Shown here one piece after another: positions 4,264 through 60,321 of a stretch of DNA of 64,000 bases (within the stretch, counting starts at the first letter, position 1; each line of letters opens with the position of its first letter). The DNA comes from a virus. The stretch covers positions 74,530 to 138,529 of the IMG/VR virus record IMGVR_UViG_3300035703_000022. One strand, given 5' to 3'. A program made the translations under genes and the position numbers. Under the pieces are notes generated by a model. It was not told where the DNA came from and did not search any database. It saw only the letters and a list, made by a program, of their open reading frames with translations.

Positions 4264-5060
4264 TTCCAGTAAGTTTCGTAGAGGTAATCTTCTGCCACTG
4301 GCAGATTGTTAGCACGTTCAAAGTTATCCTTGATCGCATCCATTTTAGAATAATAAAGTTCTTCTGTCAAAATAGAAACATCAAAGTCATCATCCAAGAA
4401 TATAATACCATCCTCGTTGAAATACTCTGTGACTCCTTTACATCCGTAGAAGATGGGAATCGTTCCTGTGGCGAAACAATCTGTAAGTTTCTCCGTAAAG
4501 TATGTATCATAGACGGCATTCTCTACGGCCACAGAGAACATATAATCTCGGATACCTTCTTCCTTTCTAGGAAGATCACGAAACCCACGACCATAAAGAT
4601 CAAGTTGATCTTTAAACTTATTCACGAATTCAAGTCTCTTGCGATGTCCAGGAACCATAGACTTGTTTGAAGAGATCATAGAAACAAGTTTAGTCTTGTC
4701 ATAAATCTGGCGTTCTTCAATCCATGGAGCTGCATTGCTTAATGCATATTGAAACTTTGGATACTTCTCACATAGTTCTTTATCTGGAGACAAAATACCA
4801 TCCACTCTAGAAGCAACAAAATCATAGTTTGCAAGAATCCAATCATAAACATTTTGAATGACTTGTTTTGATTCAAGTAACCAGATATACTTTGGTGTAG
4901 AAGAAACATCCTGAAGTACATCTAGGGATCTTTGATTTACATAAAGACTTACTGCACCGGAACCATCATAAACCCACTCAGTAAAACTAGAAGTATTTTT
5001 ATCTGAGGTTGACGGGAGAAGAGAGTCGTTACAATAAAGATTAATTTGAAACTTGTTCAT
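4260..5060 (-). CDS. GT10 (alpha-1,3-fucosyltransferase-like) glycosyltransferase
   Basis: YMFSVAVEN...YFTEKLTDCFATGTIPIFYG matches the GT10 C-terminal motif. Confidence 0.8.
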   Translation of the reverse strand: MNKFQINLYCNDSLLPSTSDKNTSSFTEWVYDGSGAVSLYVNQRSLDVLQDVSSTPKYIWLLESKQVIQNVYDWILANYDFVASRVDGILSPDKELCEKYPKFQYALSNAAPWIEERQIYDKTKLVSMISSNKSMVPGHRKRLEFVNKFKDQLDLYGRGFRDLPRKEEGIRDYMFSVAVENAVYDTYFTEKLTDCFATGTIPIFYGCKGVTEYFNEDGIIFLDDDFDVSILTEELYYSKMDAIKDNFERANNLPVAEDYLYETYWK

Positions 5061-9522: not shown

Positions 9523-9540
9523 AGTTTTTATATTTATAAA

Positions 9541-14012: not shown

Positions 14013-14020
14013 TATTTATA
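14013..14020 (-). promoter_or_regulatory. T4-type late promoter
   Basis: TATAAATA on the minus strand. Confidence 0.65.
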
Positions 14021-21372: not shown

Positions 21373-22134
21373 TCAAGAGGCTATGTCAAGTATTTTTTGT
21401 TCATCTATAAAATTAATTAAAGTTTCTGCCCAAAATTTATGAAAAGGTTCTGGTAGATGCTTTGACCATCTAGGATCTTTTATGATATTTCTCCAATCTT
21501 CATGATGACTGGCAACCCCCCAATAAGAATATGAAGAATATACATCATTTGATTTTGATTGATCATATAGATTAGTTTTAGTACTATGATGACCAAAAAA
21601 GTTTTTCTTATGAATTAGATTCCAATTTCCAAGATACCAATAACTACTTGCGTGAAATACGTATGGTATGTTATACTGATCACATATAGTTTGTATAATA
21701 AAAATTTGAGATAAGGCTTTATAATTCAAAAAATCATCGGTATTCGATTTTATATAATCTTCATATGGTCTAATGAAATCAGTATCAACCAATAATTGTT
21801 TTTCAGTATGTTCATTTTGAAATAATATGGAAGGACAACAGTGATAAATTTTTTCCGGTAACTTAATATAAGTTCTAGCAGGATCACAAAAATTACAAAG
21901 AACAAATACATTCTGATTTTTTATTATTGCATGTTGAATTCTTATCATAAACTGACGAATTATCCAATCATTACTGCCACCAGAGACAGCAAAATTTTCA
22001 TAATCAAATCCATAATGTTTGGCAATATATGCGGGATAAGCTTTATCAAAAGATTTTGGTGAATATTGCTCCTCTATTTCTGCACCTGCAGTATGACTAT
22101 CTCCAAAAGCAAGTAATATCCTTTTCATGTCCAT
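21373..22134 (-). CDS. SGNH/GDSL-like protein
   Basis: AFGDSHTAG block I, NFAVSGGSN block II and C-terminal HLPEPFH. Confidence 0.65.
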   Translation of the reverse strand: MDMKRILLAFGDSHTAGAEIEEQYSPKSFDKAYPAYIAKHYGFDYENFAVSGGSNDWIIRQFMIRIQHAIIKNQNVFVLCNFCDPARTYIKLPEKIYHCCPSILFQNEHTEKQLLVDTDFIRPYEDYIKSNTDDFLNYKALSQIFIIQTICDQYNIPYVFHASSYWYLGNWNLIHKKNFFGHHSTKTNLYDQSKSNDVYSSYSYWGVASHHEDWRNIIKDPRWSKHLPEPFHKFWAETLINFIDEQKILDIAS

Positions 22135-23594
22135 ATCTTAATTTGATGAATTTCTTCCCATGTATATACCTGATTTATATCATTAATAATGGGTTCTCCC
22201 TTTATATTTAAACTAGTATTCAGAATCATAGGACATCCAGTTTTTTCATACCATATTTCCAAAAGTTCTCTAAACTGTGGATTATTTTTCTTTGATAATG
22301 TTTGAACTCGACTTGTATTGTCAAGGTGAACTATCGCTGGATATAAATCTGGCCTTTTACATTTAGCAGTAAATTGCATATATGGAGTTTTGTTAGTAGG
22401 CATTTCAAAATATTGATTAGCCATCTCCTCCAAAATTACAGGAGCAAATGGTCTAAATGATTCTCTTTTTTTAATTGAATTTACCAAATTCTTAATATCA
22501 TCTCCTCTCGGATCTGCTATTAAACTTCTATTACCTAAAGATCTTGGACCAAACTCTGCACGACCTCTAGCTATTCCACATATTTTGTTTTCTATGAGAT
22601 GATTAACTATTTCATGGTTAGATGATTTGTAACCCAAATCAAATCCCAAATAGGGTCCAGACCACTCTATATGTTTTTTACTATGTGATAACACCGATCC
22701 AATAGAACTACCATCATCTCCTGGTGCAGGCATAATCCATACGTTATCAAAATATTTGTAACAAATAGAATTAGCCACACAATTTAAAGCGCATCCCCCC
22801 ATCAACACTAAATTTTTATTTCTAGATATTGATAGTGATTTGATTAGAACTCTTTCAAATAAAAATTCATATACGCTTTGAGTAGCTGCAGCAATATCAA
22901 AAATATCTCTTTGAGAATTAAGATCCGGTCTCCACCATCGACATCCTCTGTGGAGATTATATTTAATTTTAAAAGGGTCTTCTTCTGAGAGATCTATAAA
23001 GTCTTCGAGGATGTCTGAAAATAGTCTAGAAGGGTCTCCAAAGGCGGACATGCCCATAAGGATGTATTCCTCTTCATTAGGCTTTAATCCACATCTCTGG
23101 GTCATTGCGGAGTACCATAGACCCAAACTGGAGGGATATAAGTGCGAATATAGTTTTTTAAGTTCTTTTCCCTTTCCCTCCCATATGGTAAAAGTATCAA
23201 ACTCACCGATAGCATCCAATACAATTACCGTAGCGTCAGTAAATGGACTGGTATAATATCCAGCAGCAGCATGACTGCGATGATGATTTGAGTATTTAAT
23301 AGGAACTTTCAGTGAAGTTTTATCAAAAATATATTTTGGTATATTATTTTCATTTAAACAATATCCTTGTCCAGAAAATATTTGTCTTAATGTTTTTAAT
23401 CTAGGACTTTCATACCAATAAATCTGATTTGGTTCACCAAAACTTAATGCATAATCAACCAAACACCTGTTGATATGTGGATCATTTTTTATTTTACTAA
23501 ATCTCTCACTAGAACTAGCAAAGACCAAACAGTCATCTTGAAAGATACTTAAAGCAGCGTTATGACTATTTGATGATATTCCCCATTTAATCAC
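22125..23594 (-). CDS. carbamoyltransferase (NodU/CmcH/TobZ family)
   Basis: HHRSHAA, LDAIGE, GGCALNC, AEFGPRSLGNRS, KKRESFRPFAP and LNTSLN. Confidence 0.93.
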   Translation of the reverse strand: MIKWGISSNSHNAALSIFQDDCLVFASSSERFSKIKNDPHINRCLVDYALSFGEPNQIYWYESPRLKTLRQIFSGQGYCLNENNIPKYIFDKTSLKVPIKYSNHHRSHAAAGYYTSPFTDATVIVLDAIGEFDTFTIWEGKGKELKKLYSHLYPSSLGLWYSAMTQRCGLKPNEEEYILMGMSAFGDPSRLFSDILEDFIDLSEEDPFKIKYNLHRGCRWWRPDLNSQRDIFDIAAATQSVYEFLFERVLIKSLSISRNKNLVLMGGCALNCVANSICYKYFDNVWIMPAPGDDGSSIGSVLSHSKKHIEWSGPYLGFDLGYKSSNHEIVNHLIENKICGIARGRAEFGPRSLGNRSLIADPRGDDIKNLVNSIKKRESFRPFAPVILEEMANQYFEMPTNKTPYMQFTAKCKRPDLYPAIVHLDNTSRVQTLSKKNNPQFRELLEIWYEKTGCPMILNTSLNIKGEPIINDINQVYTWEEIHQIKIWT

Positions 23595-23695
23595 TTGTAT
23601 ATAAAAGGATCACGTTTTTGTAAATTTTTTAATCTCTTTTTAAAATTTATTTCTTTTTTCCAATTAGAAATAAGATTCCAAAGTTTCTTAATCAT
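23591..23695 (-). CDS. 34-aa DPFIYK peptide 1
   Basis: MIKKLWNLISNWKKEINFKKRLKNLQKRDPFIYK; its TGA overlaps the GTG start of the carbamoyltransferase; paralogue at 31830-31934. Confidence 0.75.
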   Translation of the reverse strand: MIKKLWNLISNWKKEINFKKRLKNLQKRDPFIYK

Positions 23696-23729
23696 TGAAA
23701 ATTTATATCACTAAAATTTATTTAGATAC

Positions 23730-23753
23730 AAAAAAGGAGGTCGGTTGACCTCC
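23730..23753 (-). terminator. intrinsic terminator
   Basis: Minus strand GGAGGTC-AACC-GACCTCC-TTTTTT. Confidence 0.8.
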
Positions 23754-23775
23754 AGGAGTCATATTTTAATTGTTC

Positions 23776-24690
23776 TCAACGAACATTCTTTGCGTACCAC
23801 TTTTCAAAATCTTCTCTACGCTTGTCACCTCTTGGTGGCATAGGAGTCTTTTCACCACGGACTTTGCCGTACTTCTTTTCGTTTTCCTTCTCTTCATCTT
23901 CTTCATGTTTCTCTGGATTTTCACGAGCTTCTTGAGCCTCATCCAGAATTTCAACTCCATAAGATTCTAGAATGGAAGATCTCCAATCTTCACTCATGTT
24001 TGCCATCATTACGAGCGCATTCTCTTCAGTCTCTGCATAACCCTCACCAAGTAAATGTCCTTTGATAAGATCAAAGATATCTACACCTGCTTTTACAACA
24101 GTAGGAGTTTTTTCTGCGGCTGCAGTCCCCTTGTTATAGAGAACTTTATTAACTTCAGCTCTAGAACCACCTTCTTTTCTGATTTTTTGAGCTTGAGCAA
24201 GTTTTGGATTTGCTTTTGCCCATGCATCCATTGCAGATCCTGCTGGTTTCGCTGGTGCTGATGGAGCGGTTGGTTTTGGTGCAGCAGATGCAGCAGGTTT
24301 TGCAACAGGGGCAGCGGCAGGTTTAGGAGATGTAGCAGGAGCTGGAGCAGGTTTTGCAGCAGGGGCAGCGGCAGGTTTAGGAGATGCAGCAGGTTTTGTA
24401 GCAGGAGTAGTTGGTTTGATTACTCCACCACCTCTAACATTTCTGTTTCTTGTTATTGGCGCCTCTGGTTTTTTTCCTGCTGCATTTCCATAAAGAAGAG
24501 TATTACCTAAAGCAACTCTATTTTTAGAGACAGTGGCATCATAAGCCGCTCTAGCTTTTGGATCTGTGGGAGCACCACGTTCCATAAGTTGTTCTACACC
24601 CTCTTCTACAATTTCTTCATTAAGAACCTCAGTGGTCTCATAAACTTTCGAATAGGCCTCAAAGAGACCTCTGATGTCTTGTCCTTCCAT
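23776..24690 (-). CDS. Pro/Ala/Lys-rich hypothetical (probably virion-associated) protein
   Basis: PAKPAA repeats and an EGYAETEENALVMMANMSEDW module of a type common in cyanomyoviruses. Confidence 0.75.
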   Translation of the reverse strand: MEGQDIRGLFEAYSKVYETTEVLNEEIVEEGVEQLMERGAPTDPKARAAYDATVSKNRVALGNTLLYGNAAGKKPEAPITRNRNVRGGGVIKPTTPATKPAASPKPAAAPAAKPAPAPATSPKPAAAPVAKPAASAAPKPTAPSAPAKPAGSAMDAWAKANPKLAQAQKIRKEGGSRAEVNKVLYNKGTAAAEKTPTVVKAGVDIFDLIKGHLLGEGYAETEENALVMMANMSEDWRSSILESYGVEILDEAQEARENPEKHEEDEEKENEKKYGKVRGEKTPMPPRGDKRREDFEKWYAKNVR

Positions 24691-24787
24691 TTTTATGCAA
24701 TAAAAAGTACTTTTATAATGTTATTTATTATTCTTACCAATTTATCAATCAATAAATATAAAAATAGGGAAAGACTGAGGAAAATTA

Positions 24788-25738
24788 ATGTCTAGACTCG
24801 GGATCAACACTGGTAGTAATCCTAATGATGGTCAAGGTGATCCATTAAGAGTTGCAATGGGCAAAATTAATAGTAATTTTGCAGAAATTTATAATTCTTT
24901 TGGTGATGGATTTAGTCTAATTAGCTATGCAAGTACTGCTGGAATTTCATCAGTTGCAAGAAATTTAACTGGAAGTCCAAGAATAAACGTTAGTGGTATT
25001 TTAAATACCGGCATCACAACAACAGAACATATAGAAGTAACAAATATAACCTCCACAGGAATAATTACTGCAACTCAATTTGTGGGAGATGGATCTCAAC
25101 TTACAAATGTTACTGCTCTTGTTGGTGGATTGGAAGTATTAGATGATAATGTAAGAAAGGGAGTTGCAAGAGAACTTAATTTTGGCGATAATATAATTTC
25201 TTCCGGACCAAATAATGTAGGAAGAGTTACTATTTCTGTAACATCAACACCATTTTCAGAAGCTTCTGGATTTGCTGACTCTGCAAATTATGCAGAAAAT
25301 TCTGGACTTGCTGATGTTGCAAATTATGCAGAAGTGTCAGGCATATCCACAAACTCTCTTTTTGCGACAACTTCTGGTTCACTCACAGGAAGTCCAGATA
25401 TTACGGTAGGAGTTGTTACCGCAAATCTATTTGTTGGTGATGGTTCTGGTATATTCAATCTTAATACTACCAATGTATCATATTGGATTCTCAACAACTC
25501 TGGAATTCATACATTTTCAAACGTCGGAATAGGCACGACAAATCCAACAATAAAATTAGATGTTGTTGGAGACGGCAAGTTTAGTGGTATAGTTACCGCC
25601 ACAAATTTTGATAGTCTACAAGATATTAGAGTTGGATTTAATACTTCTTATGGATTAATTTTAACTTCTCCAAATGGCACCAAGTATCGTCTGGTTGTTG
25701 ATGACATTGGAGTTTTAAGTACAGTTCTTGTTGAATAA
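24788..25738 (+). CDS. baseplate/tail-associated structural protein (gp9/gp10-like N-terminus)
   Basis: INTGSNPNDGQGDPLRVAMGKINSNFAEIY; VGIGTTNP fibre motifs. Confidence 0.7.
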   Translation: MSRLGINTGSNPNDGQGDPLRVAMGKINSNFAEIYNSFGDGFSLISYASTAGISSVARNLTGSPRINVSGILNTGITTTEHIEVTNITSTGIITATQFVGDGSQLTNVTALVGGLEVLDDNVRKGVARELNFGDNIISSGPNNVGRVTISVTSTPFSEASGFADSANYAENSGLADVANYAEVSGISTNSLFATTSGSLTGSPDITVGVVTANLFVGDGSGIFNLNTTNVSYWILNNSGIHTFSNVGIGTTNPTIKLDVVGDGKFSGIVTATNFDSLQDIRVGFNTSYGLILTSPNGTKYRLVVDDIGVLSTVLVE

Positions 25739-25756
25739 TTAATTATAAATTAATCT

Positions 25757-27013
25757 TCATTCAGGTTTTGGTTTAGTTTTAATGACACTCCAAATCCTTT
25801 GAAGCTCTGGGAATGTTTCAATAACATTTTCATTTCTAATTTTATCAAACTTTCTCATAGAATCTAAAAATTGAGGAATCAATCGTTGTTCTTGATATAA
25901 GTCAATATACGTTATTAAACTCTCATAAAAAACTACAGATCTTTTTGATTTATTTGGAATTAAAAAATTATCAATGTGATTTCTTATATTTTGTTTTGCA
26001 GCTTCTTTTGTTTTTTTATCCAAAATCCAAACAGACATTTCTCTTGGAGTTTGCATAAAATTTAAAAAGAAAAAATCTATATCTTTCATAAGACCACTAT
26101 TATACAAATATTGGTGTAAATCAACTATTTCAAAAATATTCAATGCCTGAACTGTACAATCAAAATGTAATCTATGTGTAATTGATTTATTTTTAAATGT
26201 TTCAATAAATTGTTCGGCATGAGACACAAATTTATCCCATTTGAATCCCTTTCGAATTAATTCACCTTTAGCTCCCATTCCATCAACACTAATGTGAACC
26301 TCTACACTTCTATTAAATTTATCCCAGACATCAAAAATGTGTCTACCCTTGTAAACAAGATTACTGAAGTTGCTATTATAGGCTAGAGTTACTTCATTAT
26401 TTCTACGTAGTTCAATTAGTTTATCCAATATTTTCCAGTGTTCATCTATAATTAGAGATTCACCTCCAGAAAAATATAAATGTTTTACCATTTTTAAATA
26501 TGGTTCGGATTCTTCGTAAGTTTTTTCCGAAGCATTCCATCTACCAGAAATTACGCCATTTTGTTCTAATTCAAAACTGGAACTAGAAGTCCAACTACAC
26601 ATTCTACATTTGAAATTACACTTATTACTTAGTTTTAAATCCCACCAAATAAATCCCGGTCTATTGACAGTATAATCAGCATTCGTATCGTATATAATTC
26701 TTTTATTATCCGAAAACAAATTATTAATAAAGTCTTGTCTTAACGAACTTTTTCCAGCGGCTTGGTTATTATAACACACTTTACAGTGTTCACTCGGAAT
26801 GTCATTCAACATATTTTCCCGAAGTTTTTTTATTGGATCATCATTCCAGATCTCCCATAAAGATTTTTTTTTAATATCTCCATAAGTATATTCAGAAACG
26901 CAACATGGTTTGACTTCACCATCTTGTCTAATATCCAAAGCCATCCAAGGAGCAACGCAGAAAACTTTTCCGTTTATATTGACTTTATTTTTATCAATCT
27001 TCTTATTAAACAT
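25757..27013 (-). CDS. radical SAM protein with N-terminal SPASM/twitch domain
   Basis: FCVAPW...PCC...CKVC, then CNFKCRMC, SGGE and SVDG. Confidence 0.9.
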   Translation of the reverse strand: MFNKKIDKNKVNINGKVFCVAPWMALDIRQDGEVKPCCVSEYTYGDIKKKSLWEIWNDDPIKKLRENMLNDIPSEHCKVCYNNQAAGKSSLRQDFINNLFSDNKRIIYDTNADYTVNRPGFIWWDLKLSNKCNFKCRMCSWTSSSSFELEQNGVISGRWNASEKTYEESEPYLKMVKHLYFSGGESLIIDEHWKILDKLIELRRNNEVTLAYNSNFSNLVYKGRHIFDVWDKFNRSVEVHISVDGMGAKGELIRKGFKWDKFVSHAEQFIETFKNKSITHRLHFDCTVQALNIFEIVDLHQYLYNSGLMKDIDFFFLNFMQTPREMSVWILDKKTKEAAKQNIRNHIDNFLIPNKSKRSVVFYESLITYIDLYQEQRLIPQFLDSMRKFDKIRNENVIETFPELQRIWSVIKTKPKPE

Positions 27014-28343
27014 TATCCCAAATCCCCTTTAGTTCAGGAAATACTTCCAAATAATTTTCATTTCTTATACAATCCAAAGCAGACATATAAGACTTGTAAT
27101 GTGGAACCAGGTGGTTCGCCTCTTCACCAGATAGAAGTTTTAGAACAGATATGTATTGTTTAATAGATTCCTTGGCTTTTGCTGGTATGAGATAATTTTC
27201 AATATGATATTTAATCTTCTGAGCTAATAATCTTCTCGACTCGGTATTAAGAATCAAGACTGACATATAATCAGGATTATGTAAAATACATAAAGAGAAA
27301 TCATCCCAACTATTGATTATACCTCTTAGATAAAGTTCTTTATGTGCATCCATAGTATGGAAACAATTTGTTACCTGGAAAACATAATTAATTTTTACAC
27401 TTGTATGAGGAAATTTGCTTCTAAACATTTTAAAATTATCTAGAAACTTCTGCCAATCGAATCCTTTACGAATCAATTCTCCACGTTTACCAGTTCCATC
27501 AAAACTTACAGACAAGTATAGGTTTGGAAACTTTTTCCACAAATCCAAAACATTTTCATCTTTATACTTTAAAGTACTAAAATTTGTATTATAGGACAAC
27601 CTGACCTTAGTATTTCTATTTTTTTCTATTAATTTTTTAAGAATTCTATAATGATGATCAGAAATTAAAGGTTCTCCGCCAGCAAAGTATACTTCTTCAA
27701 CTATATCATATAGGGGTTCAATATCTTGATGTACCATATCTACATCAATTTTTGGATATTCACCTTCAATATTAAACTCTTTCCTCATCTCTTGTTCCCA
27801 GGAACTACTATACCCAGGACTACACATTCTACATTTAAAATTACAGATATTATTTAATCTAAAATCCCAATAAACAAGATTAAATCTATCGAAAGTTCCG
27901 TCTTCTTTAGTTTCTTGTACATGTTCAAAATGTTTTGCATAAGTCTCATTCATACTGAGTCTTAAAGAACCATGTCCTATTTCTTCTTCTTTATAACATG
28001 ATGTGCAGTAACTAGATTTTTTTCCATTCATCATGTTTCTGCGGAGTTCTTTCATTTTATCATTATTCCAAATCTCCTTAAGAGACTCATTCATCAAAGA
28101 ACCCATTTTAAAATCCCTTGGATCGCCAGAACATTCCGTAGCAACGATCTCTAATGGATTTTTTACTTCATTATTATTTTCATTTGTTTCATCAGATTCT
28201 TCGTTTGAATCTTGTAAATCATCATCAAGACCTTCTGTGCCGCATATAGGCATCATGCAACAAGGATAAACATCTCCATTTGGTCCAATGTTCATATGAA
28301 CCCAAGGAGCCATACAAAAAGTTTTAGTTGATTTTATACTCAT
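27006..28343 (-). CDS. radical SAM protein with N-terminal SPASM/twitch domain
   Basis: FCMAPW...PCC...CTSC, then CNFKCRMC, AGGEP and SFDG; acidic insertion. Confidence 0.9.
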   Translation of the reverse strand: MSIKSTKTFCMAPWVHMNIGPNGDVYPCCMMPICGTEGLDDDLQDSNEESDETNENNNEVKNPLEIVATECSGDPRDFKMGSLMNESLKEIWNNDKMKELRRNMMNGKKSSYCTSCYKEEEIGHGSLRLSMNETYAKHFEHVQETKEDGTFDRFNLVYWDFRLNNICNFKCRMCSPGYSSSWEQEMRKEFNIEGEYPKIDVDMVHQDIEPLYDIVEEVYFAGGEPLISDHHYRILKKLIEKNRNTKVRLSYNTNFSTLKYKDENVLDLWKKFPNLYLSVSFDGTGKRGELIRKGFDWQKFLDNFKMFRSKFPHTSVKINYVFQVTNCFHTMDAHKELYLRGIINSWDDFSLCILHNPDYMSVLILNTESRRLLAQKIKYHIENYLIPAKAKESIKQYISVLKLLSGEEANHLVPHYKSYMSALDCIRNENYLEVFPELKGIWDNV

Positions 28344-28387
28344 AACTAATTTATTAATAACAGGTGGATAACGACGATCAATACTAA

Positions 28388-28645
28388 CTATATATGCGAT
28401 TGTTTAGAAATGTAATCTGCATATTCTTTATTTGGATGATTAATTAATCTTTTATGATAAAAATATATAATCATTTTTGCAGCAGTTCCTGTAAAAAATC
28501 CAGGAACAATACCATGTATTATACTAGAAATACCAACTAAAATCATCTTAACTCCAGCATAAGAAGCCCATAACAAATGACTTATATAAGTTTCTCTACT
28601 AGATTCCAAGTGACTTGAACTTTTCTTTAATATGTTCATTATCAT
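28388..28645 (-). CDS. small His-containing membrane protein (DUF6356-like)
   Basis: HL...ETY..HL...IIHGIVP pattern. Confidence 0.6.
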   Translation of the reverse strand: MIMNILKKSSSHLESSRETYISHLLWASYAGVKMILVGISSIIHGIVPGFFTGTAAKMIIYFYHKRLINHPNKEYADYISKQSHI

Positions 28646-28669
28646 AAATGCGATTTTATAAGTTAAATT

Positions 28670-30211
28670 TTATATTTCTAAACCTTCAAATTTTCGTAAG
28701 TACTCATCCCTACGTTTCAAAATGAATGTTGAAGGATTGGATTTTATTTCAACATGAGATCTGAAATAATCACGTAATAATTGATTATCTATTTTGACTC
28801 CCGTAAAAAATAATTTCGGATCTAAAATTTCATATTTACTTATATGATGAGCCCAACATATGTTGCCAATATTTGTATTAATTCCTCTTATTAGAATGTC
28901 TAAGTTAGATAGATCCAATTCATCGGAAACTCCTATTATAGATGTTTTCCATATAGCCAAGTATATTTCATTTACTGCCGGATCATAGACAAACTTTGCA
29001 TCTATGATTGGTTTAAATAATTCTAATATTTTATTATGACCGGCCACATCTACTACATGTTCATTTATTCTTATTAGATCTGTTCTGCCATTATGATAAA
29101 AATTATCACAATCTATTAAAAACTCATCATTTGTACAAACTTTTTGATTATAAGTTGGAATATTTACTTCCAAAAGATTTTTTTCAGTAAAAGAAATTTG
29201 ATAGTAATCGTCTATTAAGGTGAATTTATTTTGAACAAAATTATCATCACTTGCTTGGTTTATGAATATTGGTCCACTAGTTTCTGATGTTCCAAATAAA
29301 CTTATGATATTTTTTATTTTATTTTCTTTTACATATGATACCCATTCTTTTTTTATTGTAGATAGTGTATAAATTATTGTCTTCGATGGTGGGTTATTAT
29401 GATCAATACCATTTAAATAACCATCAATATCATAAGTATATGGAATCATAATGTGGTCAAAAATATTTTTATTTCTCATAAAATATTTTTCGTCATTAAA
29501 ATCTGAACAATCTCCCCAATAATTAAATATATTTTTTACATCTTTGGACATCAATGTTGGAATAAAATAAGTAGCTGGACCACTACCGTGACCTAAACAC
29601 TTTTCATTAACAACGTTCCCATAAAACATTTTAGAATTTCTCTGACATAAATCGAATAAAAATTCATGACTATGTTCTATTATTTTTGGTGTTCCAGTAG
29701 TTCCACTTGAAGTGCATCTCATTGCAATAGATTTTGGATCTACTTTTATATTCTGAGTAATATTTTCATTATATTCGTGACTTTCAATATCAGTGGAATA
29801 AATTGTATTTAAACAATGTTTAGTAAGAATAGCGTATTTACTTCTAGGGTGTTCTTTTGCAGCGGTATCATCTTCACAAATGAAGTAGTGTATTGGTGAT
29901 AGTAATTGTGTTTTAGTAGCAGAGTCTGGAGAAATTACTGTAATATTATAATCAATTATTGAAATAGAAAGTCCTAATTCCAAACAAGCAAAAACACTTG
30001 CCATTTTTCTTAAACAAGTTCCATAGTACCCAATAAGAACTGTTTCTCCTGGGTGTATTTCATAATTTGATAGAAAATAATTTTTAGTCTGATCTACTAT
30101 TTTTTCAAAATCATCGAAAGTATATTTTACAAGTTTACCTTCATCAGTAATATCATAAAATGTTATACTCTTATTGATAATATTTCTGTCTATTACATGT
30201 AAACAATTCAT
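28670..30211 (-). CDS. AMP-binding (ANL superfamily) adenylating enzyme
   Basis: TSSGTTGTPK P-loop, FGTSETSG, TND and GRTD motifs; TATAAATA at 30234-30241. Confidence 0.8.
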   Translation of the reverse strand: MNCLHVIDRNIINKSITFYDITDEGKLVKYTFDDFEKIVDQTKNYFLSNYEIHPGETVLIGYYGTCLRKMASVFACLELGLSISIIDYNITVISPDSATKTQLLSPIHYFICEDDTAAKEHPRSKYAILTKHCLNTIYSTDIESHEYNENITQNIKVDPKSIAMRCTSSGTTGTPKIIEHSHEFLFDLCQRNSKMFYGNVVNEKCLGHGSGPATYFIPTLMSKDVKNIFNYWGDCSDFNDEKYFMRNKNIFDHIMIPYTYDIDGYLNGIDHNNPPSKTIIYTLSTIKKEWVSYVKENKIKNIISLFGTSETSGPIFINQASDDNFVQNKFTLIDDYYQISFTEKNLLEVNIPTYNQKVCTNDEFLIDCDNFYHNGRTDLIRINEHVVDVAGHNKILELFKPIIDAKFVYDPAVNEIYLAIWKTSIIGVSDELDLSNLDILIRGINTNIGNICWAHHISKYEILDPKLFFTGVKIDNQLLRDYFRSHVEIKSNPSTFILKRRDEYLRKFEGLEI

Positions 30212-30247
30212 AATAAATTGATTTATATAGAAGTATTTATAGCTTGA

Positions 30248-30964
30248 TCAAATGGATAAATTATAAAGATAATAATCCATTTCATATAGATCCAAGAAGT
30301 TTTTATTATTTGCACAATACTTATTAAAAATATCATTACAAAATTCATAGTTTTTTAATTTAAATTCAAATTGCTGCATAGAATTACTATGCATTATTTG
30401 GACAGGTCTGTTCAAAATATTTGAAATTTTTTCATTGATATTTTTATCAAGTTTCAAAAAAGATATATCAATATCATATTTAAAACAAAATTTTATAGTT
30501 GATAATTGAGGTTCAGTATGTCCATCGAATATAAATTTATTATTTTTTAATTCAGACAGGAATTTATTACGAGATCCTTTTTCATCGCCATCAAAATCAA
30601 TTCCTTGATAATCATAGATATTTAAAAATTCATTTATTCCAGATATCCACCTTTCATTTGGGTCTCTAGTAACAATAAAAAATTTATATTGACTTCTATA
30701 TTTTTTTGGAATATCTAAGTCAAAATAACAGTTTGGTTGTAGAACAACCTTTACTGGAGTAAATTCTAAAGAATTTTCTATTGATGTGGAAGCATTCTTT
30801 GCGATTGGTACATATATTATTTTTTCTTTTTCTAATTCGAGAAAAGCTTGTATTTCTCTCCCACATGAAAAATCCAGTTCTTGTTTTGGAAAATACTCAT
30901 ATGAAACTGAATTAAAAACAAGATCATTATATTTTTGCCAATCTAAACTATAAATTTTTTGCAT
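30248..30964 (-). CDS. sulfotransferase family 2-like protein
   Basis: PIAKNASTS (5'-PSB), RDPNERWISG (3'-PB), HTEPQ and YEMDY. Confidence 0.75.
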   Translation of the reverse strand: MQKIYSLDWQKYNDLVFNSVSYEYFPKQELDFSCGREIQAFLELEKEKIIYVPIAKNASTSIENSLEFTPVKVVLQPNCYFDLDIPKKYRSQYKFFIVTRDPNERWISGINEFLNIYDYQGIDFDGDEKGSRNKFLSELKNNKFIFDGHTEPQLSTIKFCFKYDIDISFLKLDKNINEKISNILNRPVQIMHSNSMQQFEFKLKNYEFCNDIFNKYCANNKNFLDLYEMDYYLYNLSI

Positions 30965-31811
30965 TTTTTAAATTACTATAAATTTTTTCAGCAAATAATT
31001 TATTTGAATGTCTTCCATAATGAGCCAAATCTCTTGCATAGTCATTTGGAATTGGTTGATATAATTCACACCCCAATAACTTTGATGTTGTTGGGAATGT
31101 GGAGAATTCATATAGTGGACACTTATCTTTCCATAAATTTTTAATTAACTCCACATTTACCATATTAAATGGAATTAGGTGATCCAAAACTTTCGGAGCA
31201 TGAACGGATTTTAAAACCGATCCCGTTGATTCTTCAACTGCTGCAATTGCTTCTGGAGGATGTTCGTAAATATCTTCAAATTTTGTATTCATCAAAACAA
31301 AGTCTTTTTGATAGATAAGATGTCTGGTAATACCCGTCCAACAATAAATGACTAATTTTGGTGGCCCATATTTTTTATACAACATCAGAGAATTATGGAG
31401 ACAAAATTGTATTGAAGATCCACCTGCTCCAAGATTTATCACTGGAATTCCACTTTTTTGTTCTAAAAAATATGGAATAGTATGATTATCATCATTACCA
31501 GTTCCAAATATATGAGAACAACCAAACATTACTATCGAATTTTTCCAATCTATATCTTCAAATTCTTTTGTTCTGTATCCATAACTATTTAAAGTATACT
31601 TGATCTTATTATTTCTATAATACCAGTCTTTGGGTTGTCTCTTTAAGTTTTTTTTATAAAACTCATATGTGTCTATACCAAAAAAATCCCAAGACCCAAC
31701 AACGGAATCTCTTTGAATCACTTCAGATTCTCCGTAATTATGTACAAATACGCCTGGAAAGGGGAGAAAATTATTATTTTTTATAGAATCGACCGTATTT
31801 AAATTGATCAT
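30948..31811 (-). CDS. SGNH-like protein
   Basis: NSYGYR, FGCSHIFG, NLGAGGSS and ARDLAHYG. Confidence 0.65.
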   Translation of the reverse strand: MINLNTVDSIKNNNFLPFPGVFVHNYGESEVIQRDSVVGSWDFFGIDTYEFYKKNLKRQPKDWYYRNNKIKYTLNSYGYRTKEFEDIDWKNSIVMFGCSHIFGTGNDDNHTIPYFLEQKSGIPVINLGAGGSSIQFCLHNSLMLYKKYGPPKLVIYCWTGITRHLIYQKDFVLMNTKFEDIYEHPPEAIAAVEESTGSVLKSVHAPKVLDHLIPFNMVNVELIKNLWKDKCPLYEFSTFPTTSKLLGCELYQPIPNDYARDLAHYGRHSNKLFAEKIYSNLKNAKNL

Positions 31812-31829
31812 ATAGTAATTAAATTCAAT

Positions 31830-31934
31830 TTATTTGTATATAAAAGGGTCTTCTCGTTGCAGGTCTTTGATAAGTTTTTTGGTTTTAAAGTATTGGATAA
31901 TCTTATTATAAATCTTCTTAAAATTAATTATCAT
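31830..31934 (-). CDS. 34-aa DPFIYK peptide 2
   Basis: MIINFKKIYNKIIQYFKTKKLIKDLQREDPFIYK; late promoter TATAAATA at 31964-31971. Confidence 0.75.
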   Translation of the reverse strand: MIINFKKIYNKIIQYFKTKKLIKDLQREDPFIYK

Positions 31935-31963
31935 TTTAAAATATTATCAATATTGTATCAAAA

Positions 31964-31971
31964 TATTTATA
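31964..31971 (-). promoter_or_regulatory. T4-type late promoter
   Basis: TATAAATA 30 nt upstream of the peptide 2 ATG. Confidence 0.7.
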
Positions 31972-39717: not shown

Positions 39718-39758
39718 GTATAAATTATCTTATTCTTAATTGTATTTATATTTAATAA

Positions 39759-44667: not shown

Positions 44668-46179
44668 CTATCCTGCTACAAAATCTAAACTACTAGTAGT
44701 TGAGTTATACTGTATATAGAAGTTTGTGGTTCCTGCAGTTCCACCGAATCTCATTTTGTTTGCGGAAGTTATTCTTACATCACCTGCAATGTCTGTTTTG
44801 AATGAAGGATTTGTGACACCAACTCCAAGATTACCAGAAACATTTGCACCACCAACTACATCAAGTGCTGCTGTTGGTATTGCAGAACCAATACCAAGTT
44901 TAGTTCCAGTATTAATGAGAACTGTACTAACACCAGAAGTGGATCCTACATTGATTTGAGTAAAAGAACCAGAAAGACCACCAGTACCAAAGTTAATTGT
45001 CTTGGTTGTTCCAATACCCGATATACCTGTAGCAATACCTATTGTTTGTGAAGCGGTTGATAATCCTAATGTAATCGTACCTGTTTGTGTCGATCTTCCA
45101 ATTATTATTGTTTGTGATGGAACTCCACTATCAGATTGTATAACTGTATTCGCATTAATAGTGACATTATTATTAAATGTATTTGCATTTCCCCAGGTAT
45201 TTCCAGTATTTAAAAATGCAAATGTATCATTAGCTCCAAGAGTTGGAATAGCAAGTGTTCTACTCGATCCATTGTTAGTAACAATAGTAAGATCGCCGGC
45301 ATTATTAAGAGTTCTGATTTTTAATCCAGAAGATAAGAAAGTTCCAACACCAGTTACATTCAGGTTTTGTGTTGTTAAGTCAGTGGTACTAGTAATACCC
45401 AAAGTACTAATACCAGAAATAGATAATGATGTACCTACGATATTAGTACCACTTATAGAACCACCAACAAATTCTCCATAAAGACTGCTAATAATTCTAT
45501 TAGCCGTCAGTATTCCTGTAATATAAGTATCACCAACTACATGGAGTTTTGATGTCGGTAGTGTAGTTCCTAAGCCAACATTTCTTGTTAATCCATCAAT
45601 TCTTAATGCTTCTGCAGCAAATGTACCTAAAATTAATGGTGTTTGTCCATTGGTATAAATTAGTGCATTTTCAGTATTTTGAAATAATAATGATCCAAGG
45701 TTTGCTGATGAAATACCAACAAATCCAGTAGTACCTGTATAATTTGGACCATATTTTCTTAATAAAACACCTTTATATGAGGGTCCTAAATCATAATCAT
45801 AATCTACTGCACCAACTTCAACAGAAGATGTGTTATTAGCATTTCTTGCATGAATACCAGATCCATCTGGAGAAAGAACATCCAAAACTTTCTGCGGATT
45901 AGTAGTTCCAATTCCAGTATATCCATCACTCCTAATAACAAAAGGAGTTGAATCTGGATTTGTGGAATCTTCTACAACAAATGCATTTCCAGTTCCAGCT
46001 TGAGTAATTCTTAAAGCATTAGTAGAGTTATTAACTGATATTGTTGATGCACCAGAAATATTAACACCTGAAGAGGTTATGATGCCACTAAAATTTCCGT
46101 TCGTTGCTGTAACAATACCGGCGTTTATAATATTTCTACTATCATCAATAATAGTAGAATTTTGAATCTTAATTGCCAT
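44668..46179 (-). CDS. tail-fibre-like protein
   Basis: MAIKIQNSTIIDDSRNI N-terminus and GIGTTNP repeats. Confidence 0.75.
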   Translation of the reverse strand: MAIKIQNSTIIDDSRNIINAGIVTATNGNFSGIITSSGVNISGASTISVNNSTNALRITQAGTGNAFVVEDSTNPDSTPFVIRSDGYTGIGTTNPQKVLDVLSPDGSGIHARNANNTSSVEVGAVDYDYDLGPSYKGVLLRKYGPNYTGTTGFVGISSANLGSLLFQNTENALIYTNGQTPLILGTFAAEALRIDGLTRNVGLGTTLPTSKLHVVGDTYITGILTANRIISSLYGEFVGGSISGTNIVGTSLSISGISTLGITSTTDLTTQNLNVTGVGTFLSSGLKIRTLNNAGDLTIVTNNGSSRTLAIPTLGANDTFAFLNTGNTWGNANTFNNNVTINANTVIQSDSGVPSQTIIIGRSTQTGTITLGLSTASQTIGIATGISGIGTTKTINFGTGGLSGSFTQINVGSTSGVSTVLINTGTKLGIGSAIPTAALDVVGGANVSGNLGVGVTNPSFKTDIAGDVRITSANKMRFGGTAGTTNFYIQYNSTTSSLDFVAG

Positions 46180-46212
46180 CTACCGTCCTCGTATTACACT
46201 AGGTAGTCTTTA

Positions 46213-49200
46213 TTATTTATTTAAAAATTCTTTAAGTAATTCAATTTCTTTCTGTTGTTCCTTAACACATTCAATTAATAATCCAATCAAACCATTATAA
46301 TTAACAGTTTTTGTATCCTCACCATTAACAAGTTCAGGAAGAACTTTTTCAACTTCTTGTGCGATTACACCCATTGACTTTTTGCCGTTTCCTTTCCAGG
46401 TAAAATTAACACCACTAATTTGAATAACTTTATCTAATGGATTTTTAATTTTTTCTATATTAGTTTTGAGATTGATGTCGGAAGCGGAGTTATAGTCTGT
46501 AGATGTTATAACACCAGTAAACTTAGCATCACCAATTACATCTAATGATACTGTTGGAATTGCGGAACCAATACCCAAATTGGTTCCAGTATTAACTAAA
46601 ACAGTACCAACACCAGCAGTTGGTCCAATGTTGATTCTGGTAAATGAACCGGATAAACCACCAGTACCAAAGTTAATTGTTTTGGATGTTCCTATACCTG
46701 ATGCACCTGCTTGAATATCAGTTTGTTGAGATACAAGAGAACGACCTAATGAAATTGTGCCAGTACCACCAGTTCCACCAATTAGTATAACTGCTGTTGT
46801 TTGAGTTGTTCCAAAGAAAAGACTTCCTGTTGCAGAACCAGTTAATGAAATTGAACCAATAGCAGATAATGTCCCTGAAAATGTTTGTATTCCACTAAAA
46901 GTTTGATTTGTTCCAAGAGTTGCAACAGTATCATCACTAGTAATTAAAGGTAATGTAAGGTTTCTGTTTGCAGCAATTGCAGAACCAACGATTGAATATT
47001 CAAAAGTGTTTGCTGGATTTCTAATTTTTAAGTTACTTGATTGGAACGTGGAAATTCCAGAAACATTAAATTGCTGTGTTGTTAAGTTGGTTGTTGAAGT
47101 AACCCCTAATGTACTAATACCAGAAGAATTAATATTCGTTAGAGTGGCATTAGTGCTTGTTAGGGTAGTTACAACACCAGTTACTATGTTTCCTGTGGTA
47201 AAGTTTCCTGTAGTATAAGTTGCTGTAGTACCACTTAGAGTTGTTATAGTACCAACACCAGCATTTATTTGACCATTAAATGTTACAGCAGTAACTACTC
47301 CAGAGACATTCAGTTGTCCTAATGTTCCAACAGAAGTTAGTGAAGAATTTACAACACCAGAACCAAGAGTGGTCGCATTTAATACTGAAGTACCATTAAT
47401 CTTATAATCATTTCCTGTAGTGGCATTAAATCCATTTGTAGTAACGACACCCGAAATAACAGCACCAGAAGAAGTTATAATCCCACTAAAGTTACCAGAA
47501 GTTGCTGTTAAGACTCCAACAGAAATGCCATTAGTTGTAGTATTACCTCTATTAGTAACAGTATCGAGTGTATCAGTTTCAGTATAAGAAGTTAAATAAG
47601 TACTTGAGTCTACAGAACCGTCTGCCTTTAAGAACTGACTTGAGGTTCCTCCAGACTTAACAAATGATGATGCTGTTATAATTCCAGTAGTATTAACAGA
47701 TGCTGACTCAGTTAATGCGGATGCTATGCCAGCAGTGGTGGCATATCCAGAAGTAGTAGAATTACCATTAATATCAATAGTATAAGTTCCACTTAATCTT
47801 GCGGAATTGATAGTACCTGTCGTAATATTTGCAGCATTTGCAAGATTAGTTGCAGTAGTGGCAGTTCCACTTAAGGTTGCAGTAATTATTCCTGCATTGA
47901 AATTTCCAGATACATCACGAGCAACAATAGTTGATACAGTATTAGCACTAGTTGCATTAGAAGTGACAGTAAATGTTGAGTTTCCAGATTGGTTTGCAGT
48001 AAATGAAGCAGAACCAGATAAACCAGTTCCGGAAACAGCAAGAGTTAAAGTTCCATTGTTTGGTGCAACTGTTGAAACACCAGTTACAAGACCTTTAGCA
48101 TTTACAGTAACAACAGGAATTGCACCAGTTCCTCCATAAGTTCCAACATTACTATTAACCGTTGCTAATGTTGTTACAGTGTTATTAGATGATACATCAC
48201 CGGAAAGATTTGGTATGTTTGTAGTTGATGTTGCAGTACCAGTAAGAGCACCTATGAATGTAGTTGCTGTAACTACTCCAGAAGAATTAATATTTCTTAC
48301 GACTGATAAATCTCTTTCGGTAAATTGAACACTACCAGCAGCAAGTCTTACTCCATTGGGTACTTGAGTGCTTCCAATACCAATTGCATAGTTACTTAAC
48401 CAAGCATCTGTTCCTAGTCCGGAGAAAGTTCCAGACTTAAACCACATAAACTTTTTATATGTTGCTGGATTAGTTTCTCCAACACCAACATCGTAAAGTG
48501 AAATTAATGGTGTTCCTTCAGTTGATGCAATAGCAATACCACCATGATTTGCAGTATTGTCATTGGAAACGTCATTACCACTTCCATCAGTTCTTACACC
48601 TAAAACAATATCTGGGTCATAAATGTTTAGTGTTGATGAGAAAATTGTAGAAGTTGTTCCACCAATTGTAATGTTTCCAGTTACATTTAAATTGCGATTG
48701 ACTTGCAGATCTCTTGTAACTGTTACATCTTGTGGTGCAGTAAATTGTGATGGAATACTTAATGTGGGTGTAGAACCCTCACCAGTTCCACTTGTTACAG
48801 TAATCTGGTTTGACGTTCCAGAAATTGACTGAACATAATCACCCGTGGTATCAGTACCAAGAGCAACACTATTAGGTTGAATAGTTGCTGCAAGAGATAC
48901 ATTGCCAGTGCCGTCAAAACTAATTGCAGATGCAACAACGTCACCAGTGATTTCGAAGGTTCTTGAATTTTGAAGTGCTGTTGATACTCCTGCAGTTGAT
49001 GCATAAGTGGCACTAGAAGCATTACCCGTCAAAGAACCCTCAAATGTTGTTGCTTTGACTGTTAAAAATGTACTTACACCCGAAGTAATATTAATATTAG
49101 ATGTAATTAAATCTGGTAATCTATTGTCACTTATGGTTCCAGTAGTGATATTTGCAGCATCAGAAAGGTTGGTAGCAGTGGTTGCAGTACCAGTAAGATC

Positions 49201-60248: not shown

Positions 60249-60321
60249 TCAATTAATTTGTGGTATAAACCGTAATAAACTTCAATGAATATTGAAGTTT
60301 TAGTTATTTATATCTTTAAAA

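Follow-up and report, generated by a model that had tools for sequence, protein, structure and literature searches.

The micro-protein genes and their surroundings

The window, by which we mean the whole 64,000-nucleotide stretch analysed here (positions 74,530 to 138,529 of IMG/VR record IMGVR_UViG_3300035703_000022), carries two very small open reading frames on its minus strand, each encoding 34 amino acids. Micro-protein 1 (pep1, P0001; 23591..23695) has a net charge of +9 and ends in KRDPFIYK directly before the stop, while micro-protein 2 (pep2, P0002; 31830..31934) has a net charge of +6 and ends in REDPFIYK-stop. Both were predicted earlier from the DNA by itself, with the same coordinates and identical translations, and six-frame translation of the 138,529-base genome reveals these two copies only, pep2 being the more diverged second copy. 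The codons of the two DPFIYK ends show the silent changes GAT/GAC and AAG/AAA. The 17-base DNA word that the two genes have in common is not above chance (2 matches; two or more were seen in 27 of 100 shuffles) and would be insufficient by itself; it is the evidence from the family described below that is decisive in judging the pair to be more than a coincidence. The N-termini had been described as basic and amphipathic. The charges agree with the former; as to the latter, the maximum hydrophobic moments of pep1 and pep2 (0.52 and 0.53) are the same as the means of their shuffled versions (0.53 and 0.52), a result that also does not favour the membrane targeting once proposed for the peptides.

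Each peptide was also said to be the first ORF after a late-type promoter. That would fit pep2, with an exact T4-late-type TATAAATA at 31964..31971 (minus strand), 30 nt 5' of its ATG; pep1 is without an exact TATAAATA and has a near-consensus TATAAATT after a terminator-like hairpin and T-run (23736..23753, minus) located between the upstream 304-aa gene and pep1. Another exact TATAAATA is found at 30234-30241 on the minus strand, just 5' of an AMP-binding gene. All six exact matches in the window are on that strand, and their total is not above chance (8.4 expected).

The TGA stop of pep1 overlaps the GTG start (AAGTGA) of a gene for a NodU/TobZ-type O-carbamoyltransferase (CT) of 489 aa (22125..23594, minus), and this GTG aligns with the Met of homologous carbamoyltransferases (VIKWGISS vs. 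MITWGISS). The assignment is based on Pfam (Carbam_trans_C, 175.5 bits with a cut-off of 27; Carbam_trans_N, 134.5 with a cut-off of 24), phrog_1601, profile matches to NovN, GdmN and TobZ in the PDB (E 5e-77 to 1e-49) and a CT tree, which places it in the peptide-linked clade. A second CT paralogue of the same genome, encoded outside the window, is 27-29% identical, falls in a different group of the tree and is without a peptide. For the comparisons that follow we used 80 peptide loci and, in reverse, the 80 closest homologues of the window CT. Directly 3' of the CT is a GDSL/SGNH-like gene (21373..22134, minus) that scores 23.3 bits against Pfam Lipase_GDSL, under the cut-off of 23.6; its product has blastp homologues in 17 of the 80 peptide loci.

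Pep2 leads a distal operon that is without a CT, pep1, the only CT-partnered peptide, lying 8 kb away. The first gene after it, at a spacing of 18 nt, encodes an SGNH-like protein with DUF6071-type relatives (30948..31811, minus). The earlier SGNH label finds some support in five residues (G97, S99, N126, D261 and H264) that are invariant in an alignment with seven relatives, eight sequences in all, in line with the block-I Ser, the Gly, the Asn and the block-V D-x-x-H expected of that fold; the protein has no Pfam match of its own, and the atlas gives leads only. Relatives of it are encoded between peptide and CT in three loci (L039, L048 and L066), and DUF6071 is matched by 7 of 60 proteins encoded downstream of peptides, these relatives included. 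An SGNH-like gene follows each peptide block in the window; across the 80 loci, an ORF with a block-I SGNH motif occurs within three genes of the peptide in 31, and such ORFs are hardly less frequent in the background (14 of 226 ORFs).

Beyond the SGNH-like gene, all on the minus strand, are a 238-aa protein (30248..30964), an AMP-binding (adenylate-forming) enzyme (28670..30211; Pfam, 42.3 bits, cut-off 29.9), an 85-aa DUF6356 small protein (28388..28645; Pfam, 51.7 bits, cut-off 24.4) and two paralogous radical SAM proteins with an N-terminal twitch/SPASM-like domain (N_Twi_rSAM), at 27006..28343 and 25757..27013, which match NCBIfam NF033640 with 366.2 and 330.4 bits (cut-off 170) as well as Pfam. 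These matches confirm the adenylating enzyme, the small protein and the two twitch radical SAMs that had been named at the outset. For the 238-aa protein, the earlier label of sulfotransferase finds no support: it has no match in Pfam, NCBIfam or PDB sequences and no homologue in the 80 peptide loci. The surroundings of the island include giant fibre-type ORFs as well as a gp9/10-like gene.

A large family of DPFIY(K) micro-proteins

A profile search gave 534 clusters (at 50% identity) with E-values of 1e-3 or lower, 31 of them at 1e-10 or lower. Nearly all members are 29-97 aa long with a DPFIY(K) C-terminus, the typical length being narrow (33-34 aa), and the phages in which members occur include T4-like ones, podovirus-like ones and a Ralstonia jumbo phage. 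No model of the family is present in Pfam, PHROGs or NCBIfam, and no published description of it was found in the literature; judged by its sequence matches, the family is very large and uncatalogued. Given the 534 clusters, the idea of a novel system confined to this phage is not supported.

Among the 149 matches listed, 105 end in DPFIYK and 13 in DPFIY, and the D, P and Y of the motif are kept in almost all variants. More than 10 of the 149 carry extensions or fusions, some with one to three or many extra residues after the motif (NF, NV, KK, WTY), and in P0003 the copy of the motif is internal. Within the 80 loci the stop codon follows the motif directly in 79. The motif is preceded by a basic helix pattern, [YF][RK]K[RK]LxEL[RK][KR]R; across 57 family members the net charge is +8 to +12, and the longest run free of K, R, D, E, N and Q is six residues.

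The last 20 codons were available in 74 distinct DNA versions, in which positions -17 to -1 of the protein show little or no variation and the third codon positions are free, with four codons used for the Pro, six for the Arg at -7 and five for the Leu at -10. Selection therefore acts on the protein, as the silent differences between pep1 and pep2 had been taken to indicate. The N-terminal portion behaves quite differently: 29-aa forms are without it, the N-terminal half is acidic in L156, L157, L160 and L163, and in two cases the tail forms a C-terminal fusion on a larger protein (365 aa in L174, 138 aa in L164), each encoded immediately 5' of a CT. These forms point to the last ~17-20 residues as the functional unit, with an N-terminal part that is variable and dispensable.

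Linkage to one clade of carbamoyltransferases

A CT is encoded within four genes downstream of the peptide in 71 of the 80 loci, in each case on the peptide's own strand: it follows directly in 50 and takes second, third or fourth place in 13, 6 and 2 loci. The motif is indeed linked elsewhere to the enzyme families first seen beside it here. The gene immediately 3' of the peptide varies (CT, SGNH-like, MetK, Prs or radical SAM), and the peptide's stop shares a 4-nt overlap with the next start in 49 of the 80 loci. Looking in the other direction, among the 80 CT homologues closest to the window enzyme a peptide-type micro-ORF lies upstream in 64, at a distance of up to 10 nt in 50 of these, and downstream in 3. 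The available DNA shows none for the remaining 13, and the CT apparently can therefore manage without a neighbouring copy; one subclade of six in the CT tree has apparently lost or moved the peptide. Radical SAM homologues are missing from the available DNA of 31 of the 71 CT-linked loci, and on podovirus-like contigs the peptide and CT stand alone amid replication-type genes. It is a single clade of NodU/TobZ-type CT, rather than the radical SAMs, that consistently accompanies the peptide. The micro-gene is real, under protein-level selection, tightly linked to that clade and usually translationally coupled with it.

Observations that run counter to a CT partnership are the 9 peptide loci without a CT (5 of them with less than 3 kb of downstream sequence), the CT-free pep2 operon and the 13 CT homologues that are without a peptide.

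Comparison with known systems

The closest known parallel is bacterial. DUF5989 (PF19451) is, we take it, the SxtK type, a small protein beside SxtI-type O-carbamoyltransferases. It turned up in 83 of the 201 genomes sampled from one phylum, and a CT homologue that shares 30-34% identity with the window CT adjoins it in 19 of 20 loci. Like the phage peptide it has fewer than 60 residues (49 aa), is encoded beside a NodU/TobZ-type CT, and has a basic stretch near its N-terminus, with a similar K/D-L-W-x-F/L word, and an invariant P-F-I-Y within its last eight residues (A48, P49, F50, I51 and Y52 are all invariant). A GDSL/SGNH enzyme is often part of the set for both; in the sxt cluster this is SxtL (PMC2885083). 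The differences are also substantial. DUF5989 contains a hydrophobic run of ~20 residues where the phage peptides have a long basic helix; its C-terminus is APFIYTLF rather than DPFIYK; and it is encoded downstream of the CT, whereas the phage peptide lies upstream. The Pfam model (cut-off 27 bits) gave no match to four peptides in hmmscan even at E up to 10, and a profile comparison (hhalign) between the peptide alignment and 13 DUF5989 sequences aligned five columns, covering PFIY only, with a probability of 22.5%; the parallel may therefore be one of convergence. For SxtJ (PF19588), the window's genome, with an estimated completeness of 67%, gave no match at E up to 1. The positive-inside rule would place the PFIY tail of the bacterial protein beyond the cytoplasm and hence apart from a cytoplasmic CT, a poor fit to direct docking.

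Two phage systems share parts of the picture. The host recognition cluster described for pelagimyophages and cyanomyophages, with its tail-fibre genes, glycosyltransferases and radical SAM proteins, resembles the window's island: it is large and hypervariable, lies within the structural genes of marine T4-like phages and combines fibre genes with sugar-handling enzymes. It differs in that, in the portion of the text at hand, the word 'carbamoyl' has 0 occurrences and no micro-protein appears (Zaragoza-Solas et al. 2020, PMC7029224). The phage 5-hydroxymethylcytosine carbamoyltransferase belongs to the same Pfam families as the window CT and carbamoylates a hydroxyl; its subfamily accompanies thymidylate-synthase-type genes on modified contigs, while the CTs of unmodified contigs lie among other genes (Yang et al. 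2021, PMC8670742). In the accessible part of that account no small partner is mentioned and 'small ORF' has 0 occurrences.

Possible roles of the peptides

The original prediction saw the peptides chiefly as RiPP-like precursors, substrates of the twitch radical SAMs, the CT and other tailoring enzymes, whose DPFIYK end would be cross-linked or decorated and perhaps freed as a small product or cofactor. PqqA and MftA are such short precursors, serving radical SAM/SPASM maturases, and they depend on an RRE/PqqD partner together with a maturase of the canonical C-terminal SPASM type. The phage peptides resemble them in size, in a conserved Tyr near the C-terminus, which recalls the mycofactocin and PQQ precursors, and in clustering with radical SAMs that bear auxiliary Fe-S domains: N_Twi_rSAM homologues are present in 46 of the 80 peptide loci, the nearest being upstream in 45, with a recurring order of three radical SAMs, a ~350-368-aa protein, the peptide and the CT. 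That ~350-368-aa protein may have a cyclophilin-like barrel, which would suit the invariant proline of the peptide, although its VIA-align Z-scores (8.0-9.2 over 133-150 residues, rmsd 3.6-4.3) are in the tool's own middling range and Foldseek gave no match at E≤0.001. The window enzymes, however, are NF033640 proteins with an N-terminal twitch and reach 20-38 bits against peptide-maturase models with cut-offs of 300-650 (WgkB, 38 vs. 650). Up to three or more radical SAM paralogues can stand beside one near-invariant peptide, their adjacency to it is not constant, and the CT-linked loci in which they are missing leave the CT as the constant partner. Conservation spans all of the last 17 residues of the peptide, rather than a leader followed by a variable core. 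An RRE/PqqD, leader protease or exporter, none of which had been recognised in the cluster at first, likewise did not turn up when the genes of the window and neighbouring proteins from the loci (60 downstream, 45 upstream) were scanned with Pfam; many of the neighbours match no family and may conceal an RRE. The precursor reading is weakly supported, and we think it unlikely.

The peptides might instead act in cis, the nascent basic stretch and DPFIYK stalling the ribosome at the stop and gating translation of the downstream enzymes, as the nascent peptides TnaC and SpeFL do for the genes behind them. A conserved stretch of ~17 residues is about what the exit tunnel reads, and the tight typical length, the stop placed right after the motif and the frequent overlap with the next start are all in keeping with this, as is the changing identity of the downstream gene, which would suit an operon-level valve. 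What makes such arrest quite improbable is that the distance from the motif to the stop varies, given the DPFIY, extended and internal forms of the motif; that the peptide is 3' of the CT in three loci; that a PFIY tail also occurs, four residues from the end, in the membrane-type DUF5989 encoded downstream of its CT; and that the complex prediction described below leans weakly to protein-protein contact. We regard as equally improbable an independent host-directed peptide, binding nucleic acid, ribosome, membrane or another conserved target and hitch-hiking in a mobile cassette of the CT. The strong positive charge, a conservation across T4-like, podovirus-like and Ralstonia jumbo phages so extreme that it would suit a universal host target, and the position of pep2 away from any CT speak for it. 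The two-way linkage to a single CT clade, with translational coupling, and the paralogous CT of the same genome without a peptide speak against it, and hitch-hiking explains poorly why the motif should recur in a family of small bacterial proteins encoded beside CT homologues.

We lean, with some reserve, towards a reading in which pep1 and pep2 are translated and, like the other micro-proteins of their phage-wide family, act in trans, as proteins, with the CT clade. Complex modelling, which had been suggested as a check, was run for pep1 with the window CT and gave a score of 0.37 (runs of 0.30, 0.37 and 0.53) against 0.00 for the best of three controls, with contact agreement of at least 53% and a partner pLDDT of at least 58. 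At the mark used for such predictions, 58 of 80 solved complexes pass, as do 2 of 110 mismatched pairs; scores of 0.60 or less belong to only 7 of those 80 complexes and to both of the mismatches that passed. Binding of peptide and CT is thus predicted with weak support, and of the options first put forward, that of a docking subunit comes nearer to the reading favoured here.

HypF, a carbamoyltransferase of the same YrdC/Kae1-type superfamily, carbamoylates the C-terminal Cys of HypE and so provides a superfamily precedent for carbamoyl transfer onto a residue in a partner's flexible C-terminal tail. HypE is unlike the micro-protein in being a ~35-kDa enzyme with a Cys acceptor and a cyanide ligand as product, and a sequence relation between them is not expected. 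In the most likely mechanism, the basic helix of the phage peptide would dock on the CT and the flexible tail would bring its invariant tyrosine to the acceptor site, where chemistry such as carbamoyl acceptance may take place: the tyrosine would either complete the site or become transiently O-carbamoylated, which would parallel the way HypF loads HypE at its last residue. From there, the carbamoyl group could be handed to the SGNH-fold proteins that often adjoin the peptide, or to a final sugar-type acceptor, the product of the tailoring island next to the tail-fibre genes. The peptides are more likely to be helpers or carriers of the CT than the raw material for a peptide natural product, because the family travels with one branch of carbamoyl-adding enzymes.

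The two micro-genes and their surroundings

The window is T4-like, and both micro-genes lie on its minus strand, pep1 (P0001) at 23591-23695 and pep2 (P0002) at 31830-31934, each encoding 34 amino acids that end in DPFIYK directly before the stop. Their translations are identical to those quoted in the original prediction, and the synonymous codon differences that it described between the two DPFIYK ends are present in the DNA. A six-frame scan of the whole genome, a single 138,529-base virus record of 35% G+C, found these two copies only. The TGA stop of pep1 shares bases with a GTG standing where, by alignment, homologous carbamoyltransferases have their initiator methionine, the window's own NodU/TobZ-type carbamoyltransferase (CT) being encoded at 22125-23594 on the same strand; pep2 ends 18 nt ahead of the next gene. 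A late-type promoter had been proposed ahead of each peptide: pep2 starts 30 nt past an exact TATAAATA, and upstream of pep1 lie a terminator-like hairpin and a near-consensus TATAAATT only. All six exact TATAAATA words in the window (9531-9538, 14013-14020, 30234-30241, 31964-31971, 39743-39750 and 60305-60312) belong to the minus strand, which encodes most window genes; several stand 20-60 nt ahead of ORF starts, and their total number in the window is not above chance.

Next after the CT comes a GDSL-like gene, and next after pep2 an SGNH-like one. An ORF with a gp9/10-type N-terminus (24788-25738) is followed by giant fibre-type ORFs, and, taken together, the island corresponds to the 'host recognition cluster' that PMC7029224 describes in pelagi- and cyanomyophages. 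The 304-aa gene upstream of pep1 (23776-24690), which belongs to no family and resembles variable proteins of 6 loci in patches, is treated as lying outside the peptide module.

A widespread family of micro-proteins

The micro-protein family is not confined to this window. A degenerate-pattern scan of viral contigs gave at least 597 matching stretches, at least 313 of them confirmed by tblastn, and in all 80 loci kept from the matches listed the match is a stand-alone short ORF, with the stop directly after DPFIYK in 79. The six residues [RE]DPFIYK are ascertained, because they served as the scan pattern; two results are free of this bias. At positions -17 to -7, outside the pattern, the amino acids are nearly invariant across 74 distinct DNA versions while third codon positions are free, and among 1.84 billion cluster representatives searched with a profile, 534 clusters matched at E<=1e-3, nearly all of 29-97 aa and matching at the very end of the protein. 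Among 149 sequences retrieved from the profile matches, 105 end in DPFIYK, 13 in DPFIY and a few carry short extensions. The 17-base DNA word common to pep1 and pep2 is by itself not beyond chance; it is the comparative evidence that settles the question of whether there is a gene, the codon-position analysis ruling out a DNA or RNA motif in its place. This pattern indicates a translated micro-protein under strong purifying selection, spread over hundreds of sequence clusters from aquatic and soil phages. One metagenomic relative (P0003, 75 aa) is a tandem double micro-protein in a single ORF, and its first DPFIYK is hence internal.

The family has no model in Pfam, PHROGs or NCBIfam; its database entries are labelled 'hypothetical protein' or carry no label, and the ESM Atlas clusters are unnamed. 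Text searches found no paper on the DPFIYK or DPFIY motif, though supplementary tables (e.g., of PMC5332604, PMC7029224 and PMC8670742) might list such ORFs, and none joining carbamoyltransferase, radical SAM and cyanophage; judged by title or abstract, the literature on SPASM, phage and RiPP precursor peptides holds nothing on this family either. A tblastn search of the two peptides against 50,697 GenBank phage records returned no match even at E<=10, which reflects a limit of the method rather than absence, because the queries are short and of low complexity. A collection of species-representative genomes yielded 10 loci only, all in metagenome-assembled genomes, with the single pattern KRDPFIYK, which would miss divergent copies.

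A regular-expression scan of fetched loci did find the family in a cultivated phage, the Ralstonia jumbo phage RsoM2USA (MG752970.1), where an unannotated 36-aa ORF on the plus strand (about 2038-2148 of the fetched locus, L083) ends in RKQDPFIYK-stop and fills the gap between RsoM2USA_201 and RsoM2USA_200. The CT, RsoM2USA_199, lies two genes further on, and the intervening 285-aa protein has weak SGNH-type similarity (hhalign probability 54%). The same kind of scan found a variant micro-ORF in marine virus AG-345-D19 and none near the CTs of S-TIM4, HTVC008M and C48C1; the 33-aa annotated CDS after the C48C1 CT is unrelated.

Linkage to carbamoyltransferases

The constant neighbour of the micro-protein is a carbamoyltransferase. 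It lies downstream of the peptide, always on the same strand, as the next gene in 50 of the 80 loci and as the second, third or fourth in 13, 6 and 2; five of the nine loci with no CT have under 3 kb of downstream DNA. The peptide stop and the next start overlap by 4 nt in 49 of 80 loci. Among 60 distinct proteins encoded immediately downstream, Pfam assigned Carbam_trans_N to 37, DUF6071 to 7, GDSL to 4 and SPASM to 2, with SAM synthetase, PRPP synthetase, aminotransferase and others as single cases. The linkage also appears in reverse: for the 80 viral CTs closest to that of the window (53-84% identity), a micro-ORF is found upstream of 64, within 10 nt in 50 cases, and downstream of 3, with none at the remaining 13.

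A second CT of the same genome, at about 45675-50077 of the record and outside the window, is 27-29% identical to the window CT and has no peptide. It adjoins homologues of three genes (encoding 196, 324 and 586 aa) that flank the peptide-CT pair of another viral locus, L017. Starred branches set three groups well apart in a maximum-likelihood tree of 38 CTs, hand-picked out of many available: 27 rows are phage CTs linked to the peptide (100/99), 3 are of a peptide-less cyanophage and pelagiphage type that includes the same-genome paralogue (99/94), and 8 are bacterial CTs linked to DUF5989 (100/99). The tree lacks an outgroup, and a sister relationship of the DUF5989-linked and the phage peptide-linked CTs is beyond its reach. 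A phage CT subfamily other than the window's carbamoylates 5-hydroxymethylcytosine, according to part of PMC8670742.

The conserved part of the peptide

The N-terminal third is variable, acidic in four loci (L156, L157, L160 and L163) and missing altogether from the 29-aa forms. In two further loci the protein encoded directly before the CT carries a basic helix with a DPFIYR tail as an in-frame C-terminal fusion: a 365-aa GatZ/KbaZ-like protein in L174 (about 3898-4995) and a 138-aa protein in L164 (about 4588-5004). This variability, loss and fusion define the unit as a basic helix together with DPFIY close to a free C-terminus. Across 57 members the net charge runs from +8 to +12, and none has a hydrophobic segment. 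The N-termini had been called amphipathic, a description that finds no support, their hydrophobic moment being not above that of shuffled controls; an amphipathic membrane anchor is not supported on the same grounds.

Radical SAM proteins and other neighbours

Twitch radical SAM proteins are frequent, not constant, companions of the peptide: homologues occur in 46 of the 80 loci, upstream in nearly every case, and 31 CT-linked loci lack them. Both window radical SAMs (25757-27013 and 27006-28343, minus strand) are NF033640 (N_Twi_rSAM) proteins. They and their relatives carry the SPASM/twitch-type cysteine motif N-terminally, ahead of the radical SAM core, and stand in tandem sets of 2-4 paralogues; a phmmer search turned up no solved structure related to them. 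Podovirus-like contigs have peptide and CT alone, amid replication-type genes. A recurrent order is three radical SAM paralogues, a protein of about 350-368 aa that belongs to no family, the peptide and the CT. That protein (L052:4895-5992 and 17 relatives) is encoded just ahead of the peptide in many T4-like loci and is absent from the window; the peptide coupled to it has an invariant proline. An AF2 model of the approximately 366-aa form (pLDDT 85.3) has a helical insertion at about residues 65-182. Foldseek returned nothing from the PDB at E<=0.001, and the best VIA-align matches are cyclophilin-type barrels at Z 8-9.2, middling by the tool's own grade; a barrel of this type may be present, as a lead only.

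ORFs with an SGNH motif lie within three genes of the peptide in 31 of 80 loci, counted per locus; further away in the same loci the motif is found in 14 of 226 ORFs. Giant ORFs of 1,455-1,502 aa, without a Pfam family, follow the CT in six loci (L014, L017, L019, L023, L024 and L038). Their products have N-termini such as M-L-R-D-V-F-Y-Y-G-K-K-P-N and repeats of the form F-D-x-S-W-H-P-D ... [DE]-P-F-I-Y-x-F-G, in which the PFIY word of the micro-protein tail recurs. The window's genome yielded no protein of this kind.

Relation to DUF5989

Of 201 genomes sampled from one bacterial phylum, 83 encode DUF5989 (PF19451, 49 positions). The 20 proteins fetched have 49-55 aa, a basic N-terminal stretch, a hydrophobic segment of about 20 residues and an invariant APFIYTLF end, and 19 of them are encoded directly beside a CT homologue that shares 30-34% identity with the window CT. 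SxtK is presumably a DUF5989 protein itself; the SxtJ model has no match in the window's genome, which is 67% complete. Genomic context and the PFIY tail are thus shared with the phage micro-protein, which is soluble and basic, whereas the bacterial form has the hydrophobic segment. The Pfam DUF5989 model does not match the phage peptides and hhalign aligns five PFIY columns only (probability 22.5%), so homology is not demonstrable. We place the family among the uncharacterised small, PFIY-tailed partners of carbamoyltransferases, as a variant that is new, soluble and basic.

Possible roles of the micro-protein

The original prediction took the peptides mainly for RiPP-like precursors, a reading that is weakly supported. 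A classical RiPP precursor is argued against because the radical SAM linkage is not constant, Pfam scans of the window genes and of 60 downstream and 45 upstream neighbours of the peptides matched no RRE, protease or exporter, and the peptide has no variable core. The second option of the original prediction, a docking subunit, fits better, the partner being the CT rather than the radical SAMs. The varying distance between motif and stop codon, the versions fused to the C-termini of larger proteins and the copies downstream of the CT all speak against an arrest peptide that works purely in cis. Our preferred reading is a protein that partners the CT in trans. Complex prediction for pep1 and the window CT, both supplied as alignments, gave 0.37 (runs of 0.30, 0.37 and 0.53) against 0.00 for the best of three controls, with contact agreement of at least 53% and partner pLDDT of at least 58, graded 'weak support' by the tool. 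On the tool's calibration sets, 58 of 80 solved complexes and 2 of 110 mismatched pairs attained the mark, and scores of 0.60 or under comprised only 7 of those 80 complexes and both of the mismatches that passed.

The invariant tyrosine may simply belong to a docking tail, or it may accept a carbamoyl group transiently. A precedent for the latter is HypF, of the same enzyme superfamily as the CT, which carbamoylates the C-terminal residue of HypE. In a more elaborate scheme, which we consider rather unlikely, the PFIY-tailed micro-proteins would all be carbamoyl carrier peptides, with a soluble DPFIYK form in phages and a membrane-type DUF5989 form in bacteria. The CT would load carbamoyl from carbamoyl-AMP onto the tail tyrosine, and SGNH-fold proteins would then remove it from there and pass it on to different acceptors, a relay that is conceivable because SGNH-fold neighbours are frequent.

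Significance

Public resources do not catalogue this protein of 33-34 residues with its nearly invariant 17-residue tail, and at least one cultivated phage genome carries it unannotated, a practical warning that a conserved, coupled gene in these operons escapes gene callers; the RsoM2USA copy offers a cultivable system in which the family can be tested. The micro-protein marks one CT clade and lies in tail-fibre-adjacent islands that are presumed to influence host recognition. Should it be a partner or carrier of the CT, it would give a first handle on the products of these islands, on the function of bacterial DUF5989/SxtK-type proteins, a question since the saxitoxin cluster was described, and on a possible new route of carbamoyl via a peptide tyrosine. 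Were the carrier scheme true, phages and bacteria would have in common a carrier-peptide logic for group transfer.
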